Shown piece by piece: positions 1,598-22,262 of a DNA stretch of 64,000 nucleotides. A program made the position numbers and the translations under genes. Position 1 is the first letter of the stretch. Each line of letters starts with the position of its first letter. Source of the DNA: Clostridia bacterium (GTDB taxonomy: Bacteria > Bacillota > Clostridia > RGIG6154); assembly GCA_045589295.1 (NCBI GenBank), contig JAZNOU010000002.1:17283-81282 (forward strand). The letters are read 5' to 3'. The notes under the pieces are model-generated. The model worked only from the letters and a program-made list of their open reading frames with translations, searched no databases and was not told where the DNA came from.

Positions 1598-1933
1598 GAA
1601 AAACTTTTCAAACGAGAATAAACTCTCGCAAGATAAAGTGAAAGATGAATTGAACCTTGAAAATTTAATAGCTTGCACGGTGAGTTATACAACACAGCGA
1701 GCGCCAAGACTCCTCTTTCGAGGACGAGCGATTTAACTGTTTGAAAATACGAGGTCATGGTCGAGCAGGATCGGGGCTTAGGAAATGTAACCAGAGGCAA
1801 GTGTAGCATCAAGATAATACACGATTATTGCCTATATTATTTTAAAGGCGGTCAAAAATCTATAGAAAGGAGATTCATTAAGGCAATAAAAAGTATTTAA
1901 TATTTATTCATTTAACCGAAGGGAGATTTTTAC

Positions 1934-2206
1934 ATGAAAAATAAAGAAATACCATTAGGCTTTAATGAAGACTTTGCTATAGATATAGACGGAGCGTATA
2001 ATCCCGAACTTGCCACATCGGTTAGACGGAGATATTCATATAGTATCACCGATAACGTAATGGTAAAAACAAGGAAAACTCATGTTGGTAATATGAATTA
2101 TATTGTAAATTCAATTTTCGATATAAACTCAAAGAAAAAGGTTGAGGACCATATACGAAGACTGATAACAATAGATATTCAGGATAATATAGACAAAGTA
2201 TCCTAA
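1934..2206 (+). CDS. Small transposon-associated protein, TnpW-like
   Basis: A 90-aa ORF with an RBS (GAAGGGAG) upstream. The segment THVGNMNYIVNSIFDINSKKKVEDHIRRLI resembles the G-x-T-x-Y-x-V...F...E-x-KI-x-RLI pattern I recall for TnpW-family proteins next to serine recombinases. Confidence 0.45.
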   Translation: MKNKEIPLGFNEDFAIDIDGAYNPELATSVRRRYSYSITDNVMVKTRKTHVGNMNYIVNSIFDINSKKKVEDHIRRLITIDIQDNIDKVS

Positions 2207-2304
2207 AAGTCTGGACTTTTCAATCGGTTTAGAGTATTGTGGTGTTGTGAAATATCTACTCACAATACTCTCAATCGGTTTGACTTTGAAGGAGGGAAAG
2301 AATA

Positions 2305-3936
2305 ATGTCAAACCAAGATTATGATTTAACACTATTATATTGCAGATTATCACGAGAGGATGCGCTTGAAGGTGAAAGCAACAGTATAGAAAATCAGAAA
2401 AAGATTATCTTGAAAGTTGCTCAAGACAATAACTTTGAAAATTTAGTGTTCCTGCAAGACGATGGTTACTCTGGCACAAACTTTGACCGGCCGGATTTCC
2501 AGAAAGGGTTGAAGTTGATGGAAGAAGGTCGAGTTAAGAACTTTATTACAAAGGATTTGTCAAGACTTGGCAGAAACTATCTAGAGGTAGGAATGTACAC
2601 AGATGTCATTTTCCCGAAGTATAATGTTCGCTATATTGCTGTTCAAGACAATTACGATTCAAACAATGTCGAAAGCAATGACCTTGCACCATTTGTGAAT
2701 CTGTTTAACGAATGGTATCCCAAGGAAACATCAAAGAAGGTTCGTGCTGTTTTCAAGTTCAAAGCGGAACGTGGAGAACGAGTAAGCTCACAAGTGCCTT
2801 ATGGCTACGCAAGAGATGAAAGCACACCCATTGGTTCCAAGAAATCAATTAAACTTGTAATTGATGAAGAAGCTGCAAAGGTTGTAAGAGAAATCTATAG
2901 ATTATGTGCAAGCGGATTGGGACCTACATATATTGCCAATATTCTCAAAGAGAGAAAAATCCTCAAACCATCAATGTACGGCTATGAGAAAACCGGAAAG
3001 TACGGCGCGTCTACAGATGTAACGGAACCTTACGCTTGGAACGATAGAACAGTAGCAGGAATTCTTGATAATGAGGTATATATTGGAAATACAATAAATC
3101 TTAAGGGCACTACAATTTCGTACAAGAACAAGCAGAGAATACAAAGGCCTGAAGAAGAATGGATTCGTGTCGAGGGCACTCACGAAGCAATCATAGATAT
3201 GGATACTTGGAAAGTCGTCCGAAGGGTTCGTGAAGGCAAGCGAAGAAGAGATTCCATGGACGAGATTAACAAATATGTTGGACTTTTGTATTGTGCAGAC
3301 TGCGGTAATAAGTTATATTTCGTCAGAGGTAAAACTCTAAGCCCGGATGCATTTCACTTCATTTGCAGCAGATATAGAAAACACAGAGGCGAAGAACAAT
3401 GCACACCTCATTCTATAAGGGAAGCTGTTCTGGACGAAATCATCCTTGAAGAAATCAGGAGAATTACCTACTTTGCCAGAACAAAGACGAAGGAATTTGC
3501 TGAGTTTATAAACCAAAAAACCTCTGCAGAAAGCCGAAAAGAATTATCGGCAAAATCAGCAGAGTTTGGCAGATTAACAAAGCGAGAAGGAGAATTAGAG
3601 TCTTTATTCAAGCGTGTGTATGAAGACTATGTTTCGGAGAAGATAACAGAGAAGCAGTTTCAGATGTTGTCAGAGAGTTATACGGCGGAGCAAAAGGAAC
3701 TTCAAATTCGCATTCCTGCGTTGGGAAGTGAAATTGACACCTTGAAATCTGCAACCACAAACACAGAGAAGTTTGTATCCTTGGCAAAGAAATATGTGCA
3801 CATCAAGGAACTGACTCCTGAAATATTACTGACCTTCGTATCCAAGATTGTTATACACGAACGAAGTGAAAAAAGGTCTAAAAGTGCTACTCAGCGAATA
3901 GACATATACTTCACTCACATAGGACAAGCCTGTTAA
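2305..3936 (+). CDS. Large serine recombinase (resolvase/invertase N-terminal catalytic domain plus recombinase and zinc-ribbon/coiled-coil C-terminal region)
   Basis: N-terminus LLYCRLSREDALEGESNSIENQKK...GYSGTNFDRPDFQ...ITKDLSRLGRNY is the catalytic Ser-Arg motif of serine recombinases. It is 543 aa, and CADCGNKLYF...CSRYRK...C is a Cys-rich zinc-ribbon. An RBS GGAGGG lies upstream. Confidence 0.9.
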   Translation: MSNQDYDLTLLYCRLSREDALEGESNSIENQKKIILKVAQDNNFENLVFLQDDGYSGTNFDRPDFQKGLKLMEEGRVKNFITKDLSRLGRNYLEVGMYTDVIFPKYNVRYIAVQDNYDSNNVESNDLAPFVNLFNEWYPKETSKKVRAVFKFKAERGERVSSQVPYGYARDESTPIGSKKSIKLVIDEEAAKVVREIYRLCASGLGPTYIANILKERKILKPSMYGYEKTGKYGASTDVTEPYAWNDRTVAGILDNEVYIGNTINLKGTTISYKNKQRIQRPEEEWIRVEGTHEAIIDMDTWKVVRRVREGKRRRDSMDEINKYVGLLYCADCGNKLYFVRGKTLSPDAFHFICSRYRKHRGEEQCTPHSIREAVLDEIILEEIRRITYFARTKTKEFAEFINQKTSAESRKELSAKSAEFGRLTKREGELESLFKRVYEDYVSEKITEKQFQMLSESYTAEQKELQIRIPALGSEIDTLKSATTNTEKFVSLAKKYVHIKELTPEILLTFVSKIVIHERSEKRSKSATQRIDIYFTHIGQAC

Positions 3937-4174
3937 TTATAGGCAAAGGAAAAGGGTGAACAGCATAAACTGTTCACCCAACTTCCGCACCTGTTAGAAT
4001 GTTTCACTAAACATCCCTTAGAGAAACACCCAATGGTCTTCTTTTTTTGCGCTCATTTTATAAAATAGCAACCTTTGCCACAGAGCCTAAAATGTCGCAG
4101 CGTTTAAATATAAACGCACAGGGGGGACTACTCTCTACACACTGACGTTTTTTTCTTTGAGTAAAGCATTTGGG

Positions 4175-4213
4175 CAAAAAAGATAACCGCAACTATTGTT
4201 GCGGTTATCTTTT
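4175..4213 (-). terminator. Rho-independent terminator of the SLH gene (usable in both directions)
   Basis: A 12-bp perfect stem GATAACCGCAAC (4182-4193) / GTTGCGGTTATC (4198-4209) flanked by an A-run and a T-run. Confidence 0.75.
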
Positions 4214-4223
4214 AAATTTAAAC

Positions 4224-6914
4224 TTATTTCGATACAACCAAAATCAACTTTGCAGCATTGTTTCTAATGAATGCAAATACCTGTGAAGCACCTGAACGGG
4301 AGCTTTCATAGCCTGCGATTGCATCAATTGTGCTTGTTGTAAGTCTTGCAGTTGAACTTTCTGAAACTGCAGTGTCAAGAATATAGAATTTTGTGTTTGT
4401 TGAAACTGTAATAGTTTTTGCATCTGCACTGTTAAGACTTCCGTCAGCGGCAACGTCATAAGGTGTGATGACAATCAATGAATCATCACGTGCGTAAACT
4501 GTGCCAAAAACAGATTCTCTTGAGTTAACAGAATCAGCAACCTTAACAAATCTGTTTGCTTTACCTTCGGCAAGCAAATTGTCAATATCAAATTCGGGAG
4601 CAACTTCTTTGATATAACCCTTAGAGTTCAGAGCTATTCTTAGAACATCACCTTTGCCGTAACCTGAGATGATGCTTGGGTCATCACAAGTATAAGTCTT
4701 AGTCGCACCATCAACGATTGCCGTAACAGTAGTAACAGGCGTGCCGGTTGAGCTGTCAACAGTTGCTCTGATTGATTCGATAAGGCCAACTGCAACAGAT
4801 GGATCGTTAATTCCAATAAGACCTGAATCACCATAAACAACTACGATATTTGGAACACCTGTTGTTGATGAATCATAAGCTTCAAAACTATATTTTGCCT
4901 GATTTTTAAGTTTTGAATATGTTCCTGTTGAATAGCTTGAGCTATCGCTTCTGTTGGTAGGAATAAACAATATCTTTGTTGATGTTGAAAGTGTAACACC
5001 AGAACCTAACTGCTTGCTGCTTGAAGTGTAAGTAATATCAGTCTGGTATGCTTTTGAAAGAACAAGAGATTTGTCAACATCACCCGAAGTTTTAATTGTA
5101 AAGATATTATCAATCTTTCCTGCTGAGTTTGTTGTGTATTCAATAAGTTGAGCAATTTGTGTATTTGTTGCACCAGCATCCTTGTTTGTAGCAGAATTTG
5201 CGGCAATAAGCGCATCTAGAACAGTGTCATAGCTATATGCGGTGCCGTTAATTTTAACTTTGCTAATACCCTGGAGAATAACTGTTTTATTGTCAGTTGT
5301 AAAGATTTTAAACTGAGGATATTCGTTTTTTTCAAGGGCATCTGCAGCTATTAAGTAACCATACTTTGTGGTAGCAGCAACACTTGTTACAGAAGCTGCA
5401 AGAATTTTATTGCTTTTATCCAGATAGAATGTAACTTTGTCACCTATTGTTATAGCTTCTGAAGGCATCTTTGTGAGATATGTACGGTAGGCATTTGAAT
5501 ATTCATAAGCTTTTCCTCCAACAATAACCAAACCGTCACTATGGTTCATTGATGTAACTGCACCTGAAGCGGTGTTTGTCACTATTTCAACGTTGTATGA
5601 TTGTTTTCCTGCAGGAGACATACTTCCTGAAACCAAAAGAACATCACCTTTTTTGATTTGTGAAAAATCAACTGTAGAGCCTGCTTTTGTTATATTAACA
5701 TCAATCTGGTTTGTTGCTTGATTAAGATTGAGAGACTGAGACTGATCGTATGCGTTGTAAACAATTTTTTTAGCAGTGTCAACAGCAGAAACAACGTAAA
5801 CTTCAGTTGAGTCGATGATAACAACATCATACAATCCGTTTCCGTTGTTGTCAATAAGAGTAATTGAACCTGAATCAGGTTTTAAACTTTGTGTGATGGA
5901 AGCAACGTACTTTCCATTATAAATACCGCTTACATTGCCTGTTTCGAAATTATAAGTTTCAAAATTATTTGTGTTATCAGGGTCAGGGTAATATTCAAGC
6001 TTGTCTGTGTAAAGCTCTTTTATGCGATCAGCTTCAACGGTAACCTGTGAGTTTTGCGATGAAAGTCTTGCAGAAACAAGAATATTGTTTACACCATCGT
6101 TTTTGTAGTAGTAGTTAATCTGCTTACCAAAATAATCTTTAGCAGATGTGGTGCCTACCTTCAATTTTTTGGTGTAATCAATCTGAATCTCATCTTCTTC
6201 AATGCCTGTTGCGCTTGATTTTAAAGCTTTTCCATATACACCTGTAACAATGCCTTTGCCTTCAGTGTATCTAAGCTTTTCAGAAAGAAGAGTGCGATTA
6301 CTTGCGATACCATCTTCTGAAGCAAGCGGAGTTTCCAATGAGTTTGCAATAAGCTGAGCAATTACCTCACGGCTTGCAGGCTCGCTATGTGCAGTTTCAG
6401 CATTGTTTAAAATGCCAAAACCTCTTGCAACTGTTAAGTAGCCTGTAGGCCATCCGCCTTGTTCGAGCGCTGAAGCTTCGTAACCTAAAGTACAAACAAT
6501 CATTTTAACTGCTTGTTCGTATGTAACTTTTTCTTTTGGTCTGAATGTTCCGTCCTCAAAACCTTTGATGATGCCGAGGTCATAAGCAATTTTTGTTGCT
6601 TTTATACTCCAGTCAGCGCAGGTTGAAGCGTTAACATCAGGGAATGGATATTCCGTAACTGATACATTAAGAGCGCCTAATCCCAACACACGTGTCATAA
6701 TAACACTGAATTCTTCACGGCTGATATTAGCCTGCGGTCTGAATGTGTCAGCACCGGCATCGCCTAAAATAATACCAAAATCGTTTAAAGTGTAGATTGC
6801 GTTTTTGTACTTGCTGCTTTCGGCAACATCGCTGAAAGTGGTGGTAGCAGCCATAACAGGGACGTAAGCCAGCACCAAGCTGAGGACAAGCACCATACAA
6901 ATTAATTTTTTCAT
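4224..6914 (-). CDS. S-layer-homology (SLH) domain cell-wall-anchored protein
   Basis: There is a signal peptide (MKKLICMVLVLSLVLAYVPVMA). N-terminal SLH repeats follow (FSDV...FRPQANISREEF; FPDV...GFEDGTFRPKEKVTYEQA), then a long Ser/Thr/Asn-rich beta-type region. Confidence 0.85.
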   Translation of the reverse strand: MKKLICMVLVLSLVLAYVPVMAATTTFSDVAESSKYKNAIYTLNDFGIILGDAGADTFRPQANISREEFSVIMTRVLGLGALNVSVTEYPFPDVNASTCADWSIKATKIAYDLGIIKGFEDGTFRPKEKVTYEQAVKMIVCTLGYEASALEQGGWPTGYLTVARGFGILNNAETAHSEPASREVIAQLIANSLETPLASEDGIASNRTLLSEKLRYTEGKGIVTGVYGKALKSSATGIEEDEIQIDYTKKLKVGTTSAKDYFGKQINYYYKNDGVNNILVSARLSSQNSQVTVEADRIKELYTDKLEYYPDPDNTNNFETYNFETGNVSGIYNGKYVASITQSLKPDSGSITLIDNNGNGLYDVVIIDSTEVYVVSAVDTAKKIVYNAYDQSQSLNLNQATNQIDVNITKAGSTVDFSQIKKGDVLLVSGSMSPAGKQSYNVEIVTNTASGAVTSMNHSDGLVIVGGKAYEYSNAYRTYLTKMPSEAITIGDKVTFYLDKSNKILAASVTSVAATTKYGYLIAADALEKNEYPQFKIFTTDNKTVILQGISKVKINGTAYSYDTVLDALIAANSATNKDAGATNTQIAQLIEYTTNSAGKIDNIFTIKTSGDVDKSLVLSKAYQTDITYTSSSKQLGSGVTLSTSTKILFIPTNRSDSSSYSTGTYSKLKNQAKYSFEAYDSSTTGVPNIVVVYGDSGLIGINDPSVAVGLIESIRATVDSSTGTPVTTVTAIVDGATKTYTCDDPSIISGYGKGDVLRIALNSKGYIKEVAPEFDIDNLLAEGKANRFVKVADSVNSRESVFGTVYARDDSLIVITPYDVAADGSLNSADAKTITVSTNTKFYILDTAVSESSTARLTTSTIDAIAGYESSRSGASQVFAFIRNNAAKLILVVSK

Positions 6915-13116: not shown

Positions 13117-13192
13117 TCCTCAATAGCTCAGTCGGTAGAGCATGCGGCTGTTAACCGCAGGGTCGTTGGTTCGAGTCCAACTTGGGGAGCCA
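13117..13192 (+). tRNA. tRNA-Asn (anticodon GUU)
   Basis: The cloverleaf was read by hand: acceptor TCCTCAA/TTGGGGA, anticodon arm TGCGG-CTGTTAA-CCGCA, T-arm GTTGG-TTCGAGT-CCAAC, with an encoded CCA. Confidence 0.9.
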
Positions 13193-13194
13193 AA

Positions 13195-13231
13195 GTCTAA
13201 ATGACACCGAAGGTGTTGTTTAGACTTTTTC
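13195..13231 (+). terminator. Rho-independent terminator after tRNA-Asn
   Basis: Stems GTCTAAA (13195-13201) / TTTAGAC (13219-13225) plus an inner ACACC/GGTGT, followed by TTTTT. Confidence 0.65.
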
Positions 13232-13232
13232 T

Positions 13233-13436
13233 TTTAGTTTGTGCACGAACCAACAATTCAATTGTAAACAGCCGCATATGCGGCGTTAACCAAAGGGGCT
13301 TGAGCACGACCGCCGCCAGTGGCGGAAGAAGGGAGTGTGAAAGCGGAAGCAAAAAGGAGAATTGCGAGCGAGAGCGTAGCAATGCGACTATTTTGTTGAC
13401 CGGACCGTTGGTTCGAGTCCAACTTGGGGAGCCAAA
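13233..13436 (+). ncRNA. tRNA-Asn-derived module: a degenerate anticodon-arm-like segment, a ~110-nt insert with a conserved core, and an exact 31-nt copy of the tRNA-Asn 3' end (T-arm, acceptor 3' strand, CCA)
   Basis: 13406-13436 is identical to 13164-13194. ATGCGGCGTTAACC (13279-13292) matches the tRNA anticodon arm ATGCGGCTGTTAACC apart from one deleted T. The conserved core is 13307-13335. The module is followed by its own terminator. No credible ORF is present. Confidence 0.4.
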
Positions 13437-13444
13437 ACAAAAAA

Positions 13445-16942: not shown

Positions 16943-19934
<2,992 letters not shown>

Positions 19935-19966: not shown

Positions 19967-19996
19967 AATTATATCATCGTTTAGAACAAATGTCAA
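19967..19996 (-). promoter_or_regulatory. SigA-type promoter of alaS
   Basis: On the minus strand: TTGACA (19996-19991), 18-nt spacer, TATAAT (19972-19967). The leader is only ~30 nt. Confidence 0.55.
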
Positions 19997-20015: not shown

Positions 20016-20044
20016 TTGATTTTTTTTATGTTATAGTGTATACT
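20016..20044 (+). promoter_or_regulatory. SigA-type promoter driving the tRNA-Glu-like module plus tRNA-Glu
   Basis: TTGATT (20016-20021), 17-nt spacer, TATACT (20039-20044). Confidence 0.5.
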
Positions 20045-20097
20045 GAATGACGTAGAATTTGCGTGTTTAAATTCATATCAATTATGCATCATTCGTT

Positions 20098-20290
20098 ATA
20101 AGGCTCTATCGTCTAATGGTTAGGACTTTGGCCCCAAAAGGCTGGAATAGGGGTGTCCGCGTAGCGACCGCTGCCTGTGGCAGAAAAAGGGAGCACGCAA
20201 GGACTGTGCAGTAACACAATGAATTGAGCCAAAGTTTGGCGAAAATGAATTGATGTTACAAACGGGTAGAATTCTGGATTCGAACCCATA
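20098..20290 (+). ncRNA. tRNA-Glu-derived module: an exact copy of the tRNA-Glu 5' part with an altered anticodon arm, a ~124-nt insert inside the T-loop, and no acceptor 3' strand
   Basis: 20098-20126 is identical to 20302-20330 (acceptor 5' strand and D-arm). 20138-20154 is identical to 20342-20358 (anticodon 3' stem, variable loop, T-stem 5' strand). The insert is 20155-20278, followed by a TTCGAACCC remnant at 20279-20287. The conserved core is 20165-20193. Confidence 0.4.
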
Positions 20291-20305
20291 AAAAATTAAA
20301 TATAA

Positions 20306-20380
20306 GGCTCTATCGTCTAATGGTTAGGACACAGCCCTCTCAAGGCTGGAATAGGGGTTCGAATCCCCTTAGAGTCACCA
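20306..20380 (+). tRNA. tRNA-Glu (anticodon CUC)
   Basis: Acceptor GGCTCTA/TAGAGTC, anticodon arm CAGCC-CTCTCAA-GGCTG, T-arm AGGGG-TTCGAAT-CCCCT, and CCA. Overall it resembles Bacillus tRNA-Glu. Confidence 0.85.
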
Positions 20381-20414
20381 AAAAAACAGATGCCAAACGG
20401 CATCTGTTTTTTTG
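20381..20414 (+). terminator. Rho-independent terminator after tRNA-Glu
   Basis: ACAGATGCC / GGCATCTGT stem followed by TTTTTTT. Confidence 0.75.
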
Positions 20415-20502
20415 ACAGGGGGTATAATACTGAAGGGCATTTTGCGTAAAATAAAAGTTGCCGGATTAGTGTAATTTGCAAGAAAAAATTAGAGTGTACT
20501 TA

Positions 20503-20576: not shown

Positions 20577-22262
20577 ATGTTGTCATCTCAGGAAGTTATG
20601 CAATTAATTCAGAGCCTTATTTGGCTTCTTGCAGGTGTGGGAATTTTTATTGTTGGTATGAATTTTATGGGCGATGCTCTTGAAAAAAGTGCAGGTATAG
20701 GACTAAAACGATTGCTTGAAAAAATAAGTAACAATAGGCTTTCAGGTGTTGGTATTGGTGCAGGTGTTACAGCTATTATCCAAAGCTCGTCTGCAACATC
20801 GGTTATGGTTATCGGTCTTGTTAATGCAGGTGTTATGACACTTATGCAGGCAACACCAATTATTATGGGTGCAAATATAGGAACAACAATTACAGGTGTT
20901 TTAGTTGCTCTTAAAAATGACTATTTTGATATGGCAATGTACCTTCTTGCTTTTGTGGGCGTAATGATGGGATTTGCTCAAAAGGAAAAGACAAAAATTG
21001 CAGGAAATCTTTGCTGTGGACTAGGTTTAATTTTTGTTGGACTTAATATTATGAGCAGCGAACAGGCATTTGGAAATCCCTTGGTTGAAAATATGTTTAC
21101 TACTATTTTCAGTTTCATCAATTTTCCACTGCTTTTAATTTTAGTTGGTGTAATTTTTACTGCTTTGATACAGAGTTCTTCGGCAGCTACGGGTGTTGTT
21201 ATCACTATGGTTGGTTCGGGAATTCTTCCTTTGGATCTTGCATTGTTCATAGTGCTTGGTGCCAACATTGGTACATGTGTAACAGCACTTCTTGCATCGG
21301 TTGGTGCAAATGCAAATTCAAAAAGAGTTGCCCTCATACACTTTACATTCAACGTAATCGGTACAGCGGCGTTTGCGGCAATAATTTGGATTTTCAGAGA
21401 GCCAGTAGTAAACTTATTGGTATCTGCATTCCCTGGAGATGATGCAATGTCATTACAGATGAGAGTTTCATTGTTCCATGTTATCTTCAATGTAACAACA
21501 ACCTGTCTGTTGCTTCCGTTTGTAAAGCAGCTTGTTGATTATTCTTGCAGTGTTATTAAGGATAAAAAAGATGAAAGCGAGTCATTGACCTTAAGATATG
21601 TTGATGACAGACTTTTGTTAACACCAGCTGTTGCGCTTATGCAGGTTAAGAAAGAAGTTGAATATATGATTTCCTTGGTAGAAGAAAATACACGACTTTC
21701 TTTTAAAGCGATGGATACAGGAACTTTAGAATATAATGATGTGATTTATAAAAATGAAAAAATAATTGACTTTACAAACAGTGCTTTAACTGAATTTTTG
21801 ATTGATTTATCAGCGCATGTAGAAGGCAGTGATGAAAAAATTATTGGTTCATATTTTCACGTTTTGAATGACCTTGAGCGTATTGGTGATCACGCTGAAA
21901 ACTTCCACGAAATAGGTATTGAAATGATGAATAAAAATATTGCATTTTCAGGTCAGGCTATTGAAGGCATTAAGACAATGCGTGACAGTGTTATGAAAAT
22001 GTTTGAAATTTCAATAGATACATTTGAAACACTGCACAAGGAAAGACTTAATGATTTGTCTGAATTAGAAGAAAGTGTGGACGAAATGAAGAAAGAATTC
22101 ATTGCCGGTCACTTTACCAGACTTGCCGAGGGTAATTGCAGTGTTGAGGTAAGCCCTTACTATTCATCTGTAATAGTTGGCCTTGAAAGAATAGCGGACC
22201 ATCTTGTAAATGTCGGATATAGTATTGTTAACCCTGTTGGTTCTCAAAAGGATAATAATTAA
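20577..22262 (+). CDS. Na+/phosphate cotransporter family protein with C-terminal PhoU-like repeats
   Basis: Duplicated QSSSA(T/A) motifs (IIQSSSATSVMVIGL; LIQSSSAATGVVITM) are typical of the NptA/YjbB family. The C-terminus has two LERIGDHAEN / LERIADHLVN PhoU motifs. I prefer the ATG at 20577 (RBS GGAG at 20565-20568). Confidence 0.85.
   Translation: MLSSQEVMQLIQSLIWLLAGVGIFIVGMNFMGDALEKSAGIGLKRLLEKISNNRLSGVGIGAGVTAIIQSSSATSVMVIGLVNAGVMTLMQATPIIMGANIGTTITGVLVALKNDYFDMAMYLLAFVGVMMGFAQKEKTKIAGNLCCGLGLIFVGLNIMSSEQAFGNPLVENMFTTIFSFINFPLLLILVGVIFTALIQSSSAATGVVITMVGSGILPLDLALFIVLGANIGTCVTALLASVGANANSKRVALIHFTFNVIGTAAFAAIIWIFREPVVNLLVSAFPGDDAMSLQMRVSLFHVIFNVTTTCLLLPFVKQLVDYSCSVIKDKKDESESLTLRYVDDRLLLTPAVALMQVKKEVEYMISLVEENTRLSFKAMDTGTLEYNDVIYKNEKIIDFTNSALTEFLIDLSAHVEGSDEKIIGSYFHVLNDLERIGDHAENFHEIGIEMMNKNIAFSGQAIEGIKTMRDSVMKMFEISIDTFETLHKERLNDLSELEESVDEMKKEFIAGHFTRLAEGNCSVEVSPYYSSVIVGLERIADHLVNVGYSIVNPVGSQKDNN

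Follow-up and report, generated by a model that had tools for sequence, protein, structure and literature searches.

Partial copies of tRNA genes are known to arise from the integration of mobile elements, as duplications of attachment (att) sites (Williams, 2002; Reiter, 1989; both as cited in PMC9897764). Among the structured RNAs of gut Clostridia, Clostridiales-1 RNA (RF01699) has been described as an orphan noncoding RNA of Clostridiales and of the human gut (Weinberg et al., 2010, PMC2864571). Both kinds, tRNA-fragment direct repeats and orphan structured RNAs of gut Clostridia, are touched by the locus described here, which lies in a stretch of 64,000 nt from a Clostridia bacterium (GenBank assembly GCA_045589295.1, contig JAZNOU010000002.1, positions 17,283 to 81,282; hereafter the window). 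Upstream of an intact tRNA-Glu(CUC) gene, the window holds a truncated copy of the same tRNA (the look-alike) and, within its T-loop, a structured insert of ~112 nt (a unit). Rather than a one-off pseudo-tRNA, this is one instance of a widespread, apparently undescribed element recurrently fused with truncated tRNA copies. The features of the locus are listed below, where labels such as L082 denote the contigs (loci) compared, drawn from a redundant metagenome sample.

20097-20154, plus strand: tRNA-Glu look-alike, direct-repeat copy 1 (5 leader bases and tRNA positions 1-54)
20127-20139, plus strand: rewritten anticodon block TTTGGCCCCAAAA, a compact UUUGG/CCAAA hairpin with no anticodon loop
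20155-20268, plus strand: copy of the structured element (unit), ~112 nt (covariance-model match 20152-20270, 78.9 bits; exact core)
20155-20165 paired with 20193-20204, plus strand: unit stem P1 (covariation, folding)
20165-20193, plus strand: invariant core of the unit, including a 5-bp hairpin at 20171-20183 (exact core-pattern match)
20211-20259, plus strand: long hairpin P2 of the unit (pairs in the window copy)
20260-20268, plus strand: unit tail AAACGGGTA, end of the element copy
20269-20272, plus strand: GAAT, remainder of the 3' side of the T-loop (alignment with L082 and L219; L084 sequence)
20276-20290, plus strand: inverted T-arm copy (anti-T-arm), complement of the real T-arm at 20352-20366 (15 nt, 93%)
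20288-20301, plus strand: A-rich spacer before direct-repeat copy 2, its first bases overlapping the end of the inverted T-arm copy
20306-20380, plus strand: intact tRNA-Glu(CUC) with encoded CCA (ARAGORN; Rfam tRNA model, 65.5 bits, gathering score 29)

The exact core pattern, CGACCGC-N-GCC-N-GTGGC-N-GA-NN-AAGGGAG (29 nt, the invariant core present in each copy), was found in at least 120 metagenome contigs, mostly from human gut, and in 7 viral contigs; in the phage collection of GenBank only unannotated human-fecal "Bacteriophage sp." contigs matched. From an alignment of 30 sequences, the family has the invariant core (CGACCGC-hairpin-GA..AAGGGAG) enclosed in a variable, covarying stem (P1), with tandem G.A steps on either side of a C-G pair, followed by CC/GG and a 5-bp hairpin with an NGU loop; a long hypervariable hairpin (P2) and a G-rich tail follow. 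Pairing cells reached 84.7%, compared to 33–57% when the partners were slid by 1–3 columns, and the covariation score was 0.463 against at most 0.18, values that none of 500 shuffles attained. Of 40 non-redundant units, 39 fold more stably as the sense strand than as the antisense, the mean difference being 7.4 kcal/mol. With this alignment as training set, a covariance model (R1) recovers exactly two copies in the 64-kb window, 20152-20270 and 13294-13407, both of them beside tRNAs and both included in the training alignment, and no copy in the 964 kb of alaS surroundings taken from 80 other species of Clostridia. The copy at tRNA-Glu contains the exact core (20165-20193) and its P1 and P2 pair; its R1 score of 78.9 bits is partly by construction, as the model had been trained on this copy too.

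The element has no counterpart among the families of Rfam 15, either at gathering score or at relaxed thresholds. Models of group I and group II introns and of the hammerhead, twister, twister-sister, pistol, hatchet, and HDV-like ribozymes gave no match in the window region at E ≤ 10, nor in 26 related loci at gathering score or E ≤ 1, and keyword and sequence-string searches of the literature returned no description of the element. It is a widespread and apparently undescribed structured RNA family of gut Clostridia. A kink-turn reading of the core was discarded by sequence inspection only, since the tandem G.A pairs are arranged symmetrically and there is no 3-nt bulge ahead of a G.A step. 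The units do not behave as miniature inverted-repeat transposable elements, as they have no terminal inverted repeats and the repeats flanking them are long and variable (58 nt in the window, ~90 nt in L219). Neither do they behave as riboswitches or cis-leaders, given their heterogeneous contexts (tRNA leaders, downstream of tRNAs, after the stops of open reading frames [ORFs], 5' untranslated regions, and inside a SAM riboswitch leader) and the lack of orientation bias with respect to ORFs; a general co-orientation with flanking protein genes was also considered and dropped (18 same versus 19 opposite, from crude ORF calls). The SAM riboswitch case is found in L097 (1137-1400), where a unit sits between the SAM-I aptamer (Rfam, 51.9 bits) and the terminator of the leader, that is, as an insertion into a structured RNA. 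Rearranged units were seen in L120 (2192-2260) and L146 (2557-2620), in which a 5' half runs, at the P2 stem, into another unit in reverse complement, this second unit being deleted between two internal TTGCGAC repeats.

The association with tRNA genes is recurrent. Of 146 core matches, 21 have a tRNA gene at most 400 nt away, in every case on the same strand, and there one or both flanks of the unit duplicate the neighboring tRNA up to one of its loops (D, anticodon, or T). A unit in the loop of a truncated tRNA copy, co-oriented with the adjacent intact tRNA, is seen at about a dozen independent loci, involving tRNAs for Glu, Ser, Pro, Leu, Asn, and Thr. These loci follow two arrangements. 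Type I reads promoter, 5' part of tRNA-X up to the loop, unit(s), A-rich spacer, and intact tRNA-X, whereas type II reads intact tRNA with its terminator, inverted tRNA piece, unit, 3' part of the tRNA with CCA, and terminator.

Type I, tRNA-Glu, T-loop: this window
Type I, tRNA-Thr, anticodon loop: L200, L186
Type I, tRNA-Pro, anticodon loop: L091, L099
Type I, tRNA-Pro, D region: L169
Type I, tRNA-Asn, 3' side of the anticodon stem: L198
Type I, tRNA-Leu, D-loop: L206, L213
Type II, tRNA-Asn: window 13203-13440; L143
Type II, tRNA-Ser: L106, L084
Type II, tRNA-Glu(UUC): L118

Inverted tRNA copies appear at the junctions, with 12 nt in the window, 10 in L198, 9 in L091, and 8 each in L169 and L099, and each of them was reached in no more than 14 of 300 shuffles. 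A-rich spacers like that of the window were seen at other loci too. Near the tRNA-Pro of L091, two neighboring genes for large serine recombinases, together with a phage capsid gene (1848-4737), end ~230 nt from the 3' end of the tRNA, with the look-alike and two units on the opposite side; a linkage of the module to this prophage was considered and set aside, as the recombinases lie on the far side of the tRNA. In L143 (~5180-5430), the loop of the duplicated tRNA-Asn terminator holds an inserted small element bounded by terminal inverted repeats (GGGGCACAC.../...GTGTGCCCC).

The second copy in the window is a type II case, at tRNA-Asn:

13117-13192, plus strand: tRNA-Asn, followed by its terminator and, further downstream, by the second unit
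13294-13407, plus strand: second unit (covariance-model match, 85.1 bits, the copy being in the training alignment)
13403-13434, plus strand: direct copy of the 3' part of tRNA-Asn, from the variable loop through T-arm and acceptor 3' strand to CCA, joined to the unit end

A terminator hairpin of its own follows this 3' copy, which extends to the tRNA 3' end as in a classical att duplication, unlike that at tRNA-Glu. Ahead of the second unit there is an inverted partial tRNA-Asn copy, with CACGAACCAAC at 13244-13254 and the palindrome CAGCCGCATATGCGGC at 13269-13284.

Going back to tRNA-Glu, the look-alike comprises the acceptor 5' strand, the D-arm, an altered anticodon arm, the T-stem 5' strand, and T54. 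A repeat search returned it as one copy of a 58-nt direct repeat (20097-20154 and 20301-20358, 88% identical, spacing 204 nt) whose second copy is the 5' part of the intact tRNA-Glu, starting at 20301; tRNA-Glu(CUC) is duplicated from -5 to T54 and 146 nt separate the two copies. Several claims made in a sequence-only reading of this region were reproduced exactly: the identity of 20098-20126 with 20302-20330 (29/29) and of 20138-20154 with 20342-20358 (17/17), the rewriting of the anticodon block (TTTGGCCCCAAAA in the look-alike versus ACAGCCCTCTCAA in the real gene, 13 nt wholly different), and the missing acceptor 3' strand (no TAGAGTC follows the look-alike). While ARAGORN identified a complete cloverleaf and anticodon (ctc) at 20306-20380, neither ARAGORN nor Rfam called anything in 20098-20300, even at E ≤ 10, and the look-alike has no cloverleaf with both acceptor strands and a T-arm. 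We agree, then, with the description of the look-alike as a non-functional copy of the tRNA-Glu 5' part with an insert after T54, and also that it is not a classic 3'-end att relic, as what is duplicated runs from -5 to +54 and so is the tRNA's 5' portion.

In relatives the true remainder of the T-loop and T-stem, AGAATCCC(C), comes directly after the unit, so the unit lies exactly in the T-loop, after T54 and before G57. Following GAAT, the relatives have CCC(C), the T-stem 3' strand, which in the window has mutated to TCT. The position after T54 proposed for the insert was thus right, although the insert is not idiosyncratic, being a member of a large structured family found across many tRNAs. 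On the other hand, TTCGAACCC (20279-20287), previously taken for a T-loop remnant, is instead part of GGATTCGAACCC (20276-20287), and the complementarity of 20276-20290 to the real T-arm identifies it as an antisense T-arm copy. This anti-T-arm includes a 12-nt exact complement (reached in 0 of 300 shuffles) and is located 16 nt upstream of the real tRNA-Glu, where it could pair with the genuine T-arm in the primary transcript. The 10-nt direct repeat AATGAATTGA reported inside the insert does exist (20218-20227 and 20244-20253), but it is incidental, its copies being strands of the hairpin stem and not conserved in relatives.

To follow the history of the site, contigs of six related lineages were gathered by their AlaS homologues (87–91% identity), and they show the following states, the look-alike with its unit(s) being referred to as the module:

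L081, L217: tRNA-Glu directly after promoter and leader, no module
L082, L219: look-alike and one unit
L084-L087: look-alike and three tandem 108-nt units

The insert is conserved as a precise presence/absence unit, and hence is not the random decay of a tandem duplicate, the counter-case named in the sequence-only reading. Among the window, L082, and L219, alaS is ~82% identical, compared to 93–100% for the look-alike, for the unit's first 55 nt, and for its tail, while P2 has been swapped for unrelated sequence that still forms a hairpin. The odd anticodon block is found also in L082 (..AAGA) and L219 (..GAAA), the block of L084 being different, and both differences among the three are A>G changes opposite U that preserve the UUUGG/CCAAA hairpin through G.U. 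These wobble-compatible changes hint that the RNA of the look-alike may itself be constrained. Derivation of the rewritten block from a single quasi-palindrome template switch did not work out, as both halves differ from the real arm, and remains speculative. A minus-strand ORF of 58 aa (20113-20289) was rejected because it spans the hypervariable P2, which relatives replace.

In a neighbor-joining tree of alaS, the lineages group as (window, L081-empty), (L219, L217-empty), and (L082, L084), so that filled and empty lineages are sisters. The window, L082, and L219 have in common both the junction and the odd anticodon block. The simplest history would be one ancestral module and two precise losses, and horizontal spread of the module among lineages is possible. 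P2 types conflict with the tree, with AT-rich P2 in the window and L084 and GC-rich P2 in L082 and L219, which indicates exchange or conversion among unit copies. In L084, a tRNA-Ser fragment 5.7 kb away carries a T-loop copy that shares 91–93% identity with the second and third units of the tRNA-Glu array. Copy 1 is preceded by sequence matching the upstream of the empty site (TTGTTATAAGG), and copy 2 by a different one (AAATATAAGG) common to all filled sites; the look-alike therefore stands on the native promoter side.

Some other rearrangements were observed around tRNA-Glu in these lineages. The leader upstream of the look-alike in L219 (2325-2385, minus strand) has eight tandem AGCTATC heptamers, and the repeat extends there to -36. 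All relatives, including those with module-free sites, have an inverted copy of the tRNA-Glu 3' part (..AAGGGGATTCGAACCC) right after the terminator, lengthening its palindrome (minus strand; L081 ~110-135, L082 ~3470-3490, L084 ~3265-3290, L217 ~2135-2155, L219 ~1865-1890); its equivalent in the window is degenerate (GACAGGGGGTATAATAC, 20415-20431). Downstream of the real tRNA-Glu of L084 (2870-3300, minus strand), there are two to three tandem 204-nt repeats, each combining the 3' end of tRNA-Glu with the terminator and a degenerate element resembling the unit (GTTGCCGGTGGCAAG hairpin ... GGTGCGAAGGCGGGTACCGAAATC...).

The remaining features of the tRNA-Glu region concern its transcription and its neighbors:

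20016-20044, plus strand: sigma-70-like promoter match, TTGATT-17-TATACT, 9/12 (motif scan; homologous promoters in relatives)
20379-20414, plus strand: terminator-like hairpin with a 16-bp perfect stem, a 4-nt loop, and a T7 run (repeat search, fold)
17295-19934, minus strand: alaS, on one side of the tRNA-Glu region
20577-22262, plus strand: Na/Pi cotransporter gene, on the other side

The motif scan gave 20016-20044 as the sole plus-strand promoter-like match upstream of both the look-alike and tRNA-Glu, with no second one between them, and homologous promoters precede tRNA-Glu or the module in relatives. The proposal that a single promoter and a single terminator bracket both would hold as far as these predicted sites go, with the reservation that the 20379-20414 hairpin, the sole terminator-like one and evident from the repeat search and folding, is absent from the list of the consensus terminator scanner. 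The promoter match of alaS (19968-19996, minus strand) is a perfect TTGACA-17-TATAAT with extended TG, the 5' untranslated region is short, and this aminoacyl-tRNA synthetase gene has no T-box leader. By AlaS, a Hominilimicola metagenome-assembled genome is the nearest named relative (75% identity); among GTDB species representatives, the best AlaS match is 73% identical, with no tRNA-Glu or module near its alaS, a comparison that gave no information beyond the genus. The AlaS and the Na/Pi transporter of the window had no exact protein match on record, and the contigs found to encode its HIT protein were too short to be of use.

Taking all this together, we think it fairly probable that we are dealing with a tRNA-gene-associated, structured RNA element of variable copy number, of which the look-alike would be the target duplication. 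Under this explanation, the element would spread or be exchanged between tRNA loci by insertion or recombination at the DNA level, duplicating part of the target tRNA, in a process that may involve hairpin loops and fold-back synthesis or recombination. The look-alike would have been generated by the entry of the unit into the T-loop region, on the native promoter side. No promoter-like match belongs to the unit itself; its transcription would depend on the tRNA promoter, making it the 5' part of the tRNA-Glu precursor, and a predicted RNase P cut at 20305/20306 would release a stable structured RNA of ~250 nt, on which selection would presumably act in the sense orientation. The module could be lost precisely, leaving a single tRNA, if the 58-nt repeats recombined. 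As for the function of the RNA, we would guess at a domain that binds a protein or a ligand, with the invariant tandem-G.A core as its basis.

A number of observations weigh against this explanation. The junctions bear inverted tRNA fragments, which suggest rearrangement by fold-back or template switching and not a clean insertion, and the left boundary of the duplication varies (-5 in the window, -36 in L219), which is at odds with a target duplication of fixed length. No transposase, integrase, or reverse transcriptase is encoded within ~7 kb, where the neighbors are housekeeping genes (AlaS, HIT, RadC, Na/Pi cotransporter, a radical-SAM protein, RNase H, Dtd, and similar ones), as are those around the second window copy. 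The junction and anticodon block common to three lineages fit one ancient insertion followed by losses equally well as mobility, and the conserved, wobble-compatible hairpin of the look-alike suggests something more than a scar. Besides, the promoter is a 9/12 consensus match, the orientation of units is unbiased with respect to the protein genes that flank them (on crude ORF calls), and the counts of G.U and A.C (57 versus 49), dominated by misaligned columns, did not discriminate between RNA and DNA structure.

A more radical version, which we regard as unlikely, envisages an undescribed class of structured RNA elements that propagates specifically into the loops of tRNA genes or pre-tRNAs, RNA-mediated or targeted to hairpins, with the resident copy acting in cis on tRNA maturation. 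It would take in the tRNA-fragment-flanked chimeras, the long target duplications, the A-rich tails, and the fold-back inverted copies, and the decoy strand and the anti-T-arm would be the acting parts, with the invariant domain as a sensor.

It is likewise rather improbable that the module is the remnant, or a miniature form, of an integrative element whose phage-type att site (attP) carried a tRNA fragment, so that recombination in a tRNA loop left a partial copy and an att-proximal unit, the rest being deleted. Integration of mobile elements is a documented source of tRNA fragments (PMC9897764), and junctions fall in anticodon and T loops. The order of intact tRNA, unit, and 3' fragment at tRNA-Asn (13403-13434), L143, L106, and L084 is that of classical integration, matches in viral contigs tend to lie toward the contig ends, and two large serine recombinase genes adjoin the tRNA-Pro module of L091. 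However, at tRNA-Glu it is the 5' part that is duplicated, with ~150 nt between the repeats in place of a kilobase-scale element; there is no recombinase gene at the repeats, nor were mobile-element genes found near either of the window copies, and the prophage of L091 is on the other side of its tRNA. Junctions in D-loops (L206), the existence of tandem unit arrays, and the stem covariation and sense folding bias, unexpected for protein-binding arm sites, also argue against it.

The decoy idea advanced in the sequence-only reading, extended to a cis switch for tRNA-Glu(CUC) maturation in which the extra acceptor 5' strand, the D-arm, and the anti-T-arm would trap the 3' strand and the T-arm, with the unit sensing, we judge quite improbable. 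In the predicted minimum free energy and ensemble folds of the full transcript, the single 3' strand is taken up by the decoy 5' strand (probability 0.88 for both the window and L082), the 15-nt anti-T-arm is placed 16 nt upstream of the tRNA, and complementarity between spacer and tRNA reappears in L198, L091, L169, and L099; the look-alike is also conserved far above the alaS background, with changes that keep wobble pairing. But the predicted decoy pairing falls to 0.12 in L219 and 0.34 in L084, where the genuine acceptor pairing dominates (0.86 and 0.64, respectively), and L084 is devoid of an anti-T-arm. Sister lineages L081 and L217 do without the module, and the element is found also in non-tRNA contexts and 3' of tRNAs, where a decoy is impossible. 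Moreover, equilibrium folding ignores co-transcriptional folding and the tertiary stabilization of the tRNA.

We consider it very unlikely that the conserved structure acts in DNA, e.g., as a single-stranded hairpin bound by a recombinase or a replication protein. The inverted duplications and palindromes at the junctions, and the position of the junctions within hairpin loops, would fit, and the G.U and A.C counts are not decisive. Against it stand the greater stability of the sense strand (39/40 units), the constant co-orientation of units with the adjacent tRNA, the tandem sheared G.A motifs and purine-rich loops typical of RNA, and the absence of any associated enzyme. Finally, an ordinary tandem tRNA-Glu duplication with a decayed upstream copy and a chance insertion, neither functional nor related to each other, can hardly be the explanation, as, common as tandem tRNA genes are and even if the upstream copy has no 3' strand and no tRNA call, the same architecture with the same inserted family recurs at ~12 independent tRNA loci, the flanks of the look-alike are 100% identical to the real gene around a 13-nt block that is wholly different, and the module is conserved across lineages with ~18% alaS divergence.

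If the favored explanation of a tRNA-gene-associated RNA element is true, gut Clostridia hold an abundant, unannotated structured RNA family tied to tRNA genes, which rides on tRNA promoters, shifts in copy number between close relatives, and makes pseudo-tRNA fragments that annotation pipelines may miscall. It would represent a source of tRNA fragments beyond prophage att sites and CRISPR spacers. It would also provide a test system for how small structured elements target tRNA loops, for upstream decoy or antisense regulation of tRNA precursors, and for the ligands of an invariant tandem-G.A core combined with a hypervariable hairpin.

Regarding known systems, group I introns occur in the anticodon loops of bacterial tRNAs and are likewise foreign structured RNAs placed in a tRNA loop in the sense orientation. 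The unit, with only ~112 nt, is different in having no Rfam intron or ribozyme match, and the interrupted tRNA copies are truncated and therefore cannot yield a tRNA. In mascRNA/MALAT1 and in engineered tRNA scaffolds, a non-tRNA RNA is matured through RNase P at an adjacent tRNA or tRNA-like structure; the module resembles them in the RNA embedded in tRNA sequence and in its predicted RNase P release, but its tRNA-like part has neither the 3' acceptor strand nor an intact T-arm. BOX, RUP, Correia/NEMIS, ERIC, and REPIN are short multi-copy intergenic elements with stable hairpins, which vary in copy number or presence between relatives. The element described here is also short, multi-copy, tandem or variable, and hairpin-forming, although its core is non-palindromic and invariant across distant hosts, its stems covary, it has no terminal inverted repeats, and it is embedded in tRNA loops with long target duplications.

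The likeness to att-type fragments lies in the partial tRNA copy, which is a direct repeat of part of the intact tRNA, in the anticodon and T-loop junctions, and in the classical order (intact tRNA, unit, 3' fragment) at tRNA-Asn, L143, and L106. They differ in the duplication of the tRNA-Glu 5' part, the ~150 nt with a structured unit between the repeats, the absence of an integrase, and the D-loop junctions, tandem units, and inverted tRNA pieces seen here. Clostridiales-1 RNA has the same hosts and a similar succession of stem, tandem G.A internal loop, short stem, purine-rich loop, and hairpin, with a second hairpin bearing a purine-rich internal loop. The unit is distinguished by its core (CGACCGC...AAGGGAG) and by having no outer closing stem and no first hairpin, and the Clostridiales-1 model, at a relaxed E-value cut-off, did not match the window copy or 12 other loci. 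L101 (997-1155) gave a weak match of 21.8 bits, the best score obtained and far below the gathering score of 48, and Clostridiales-1 RNA and the element family could be distantly related.

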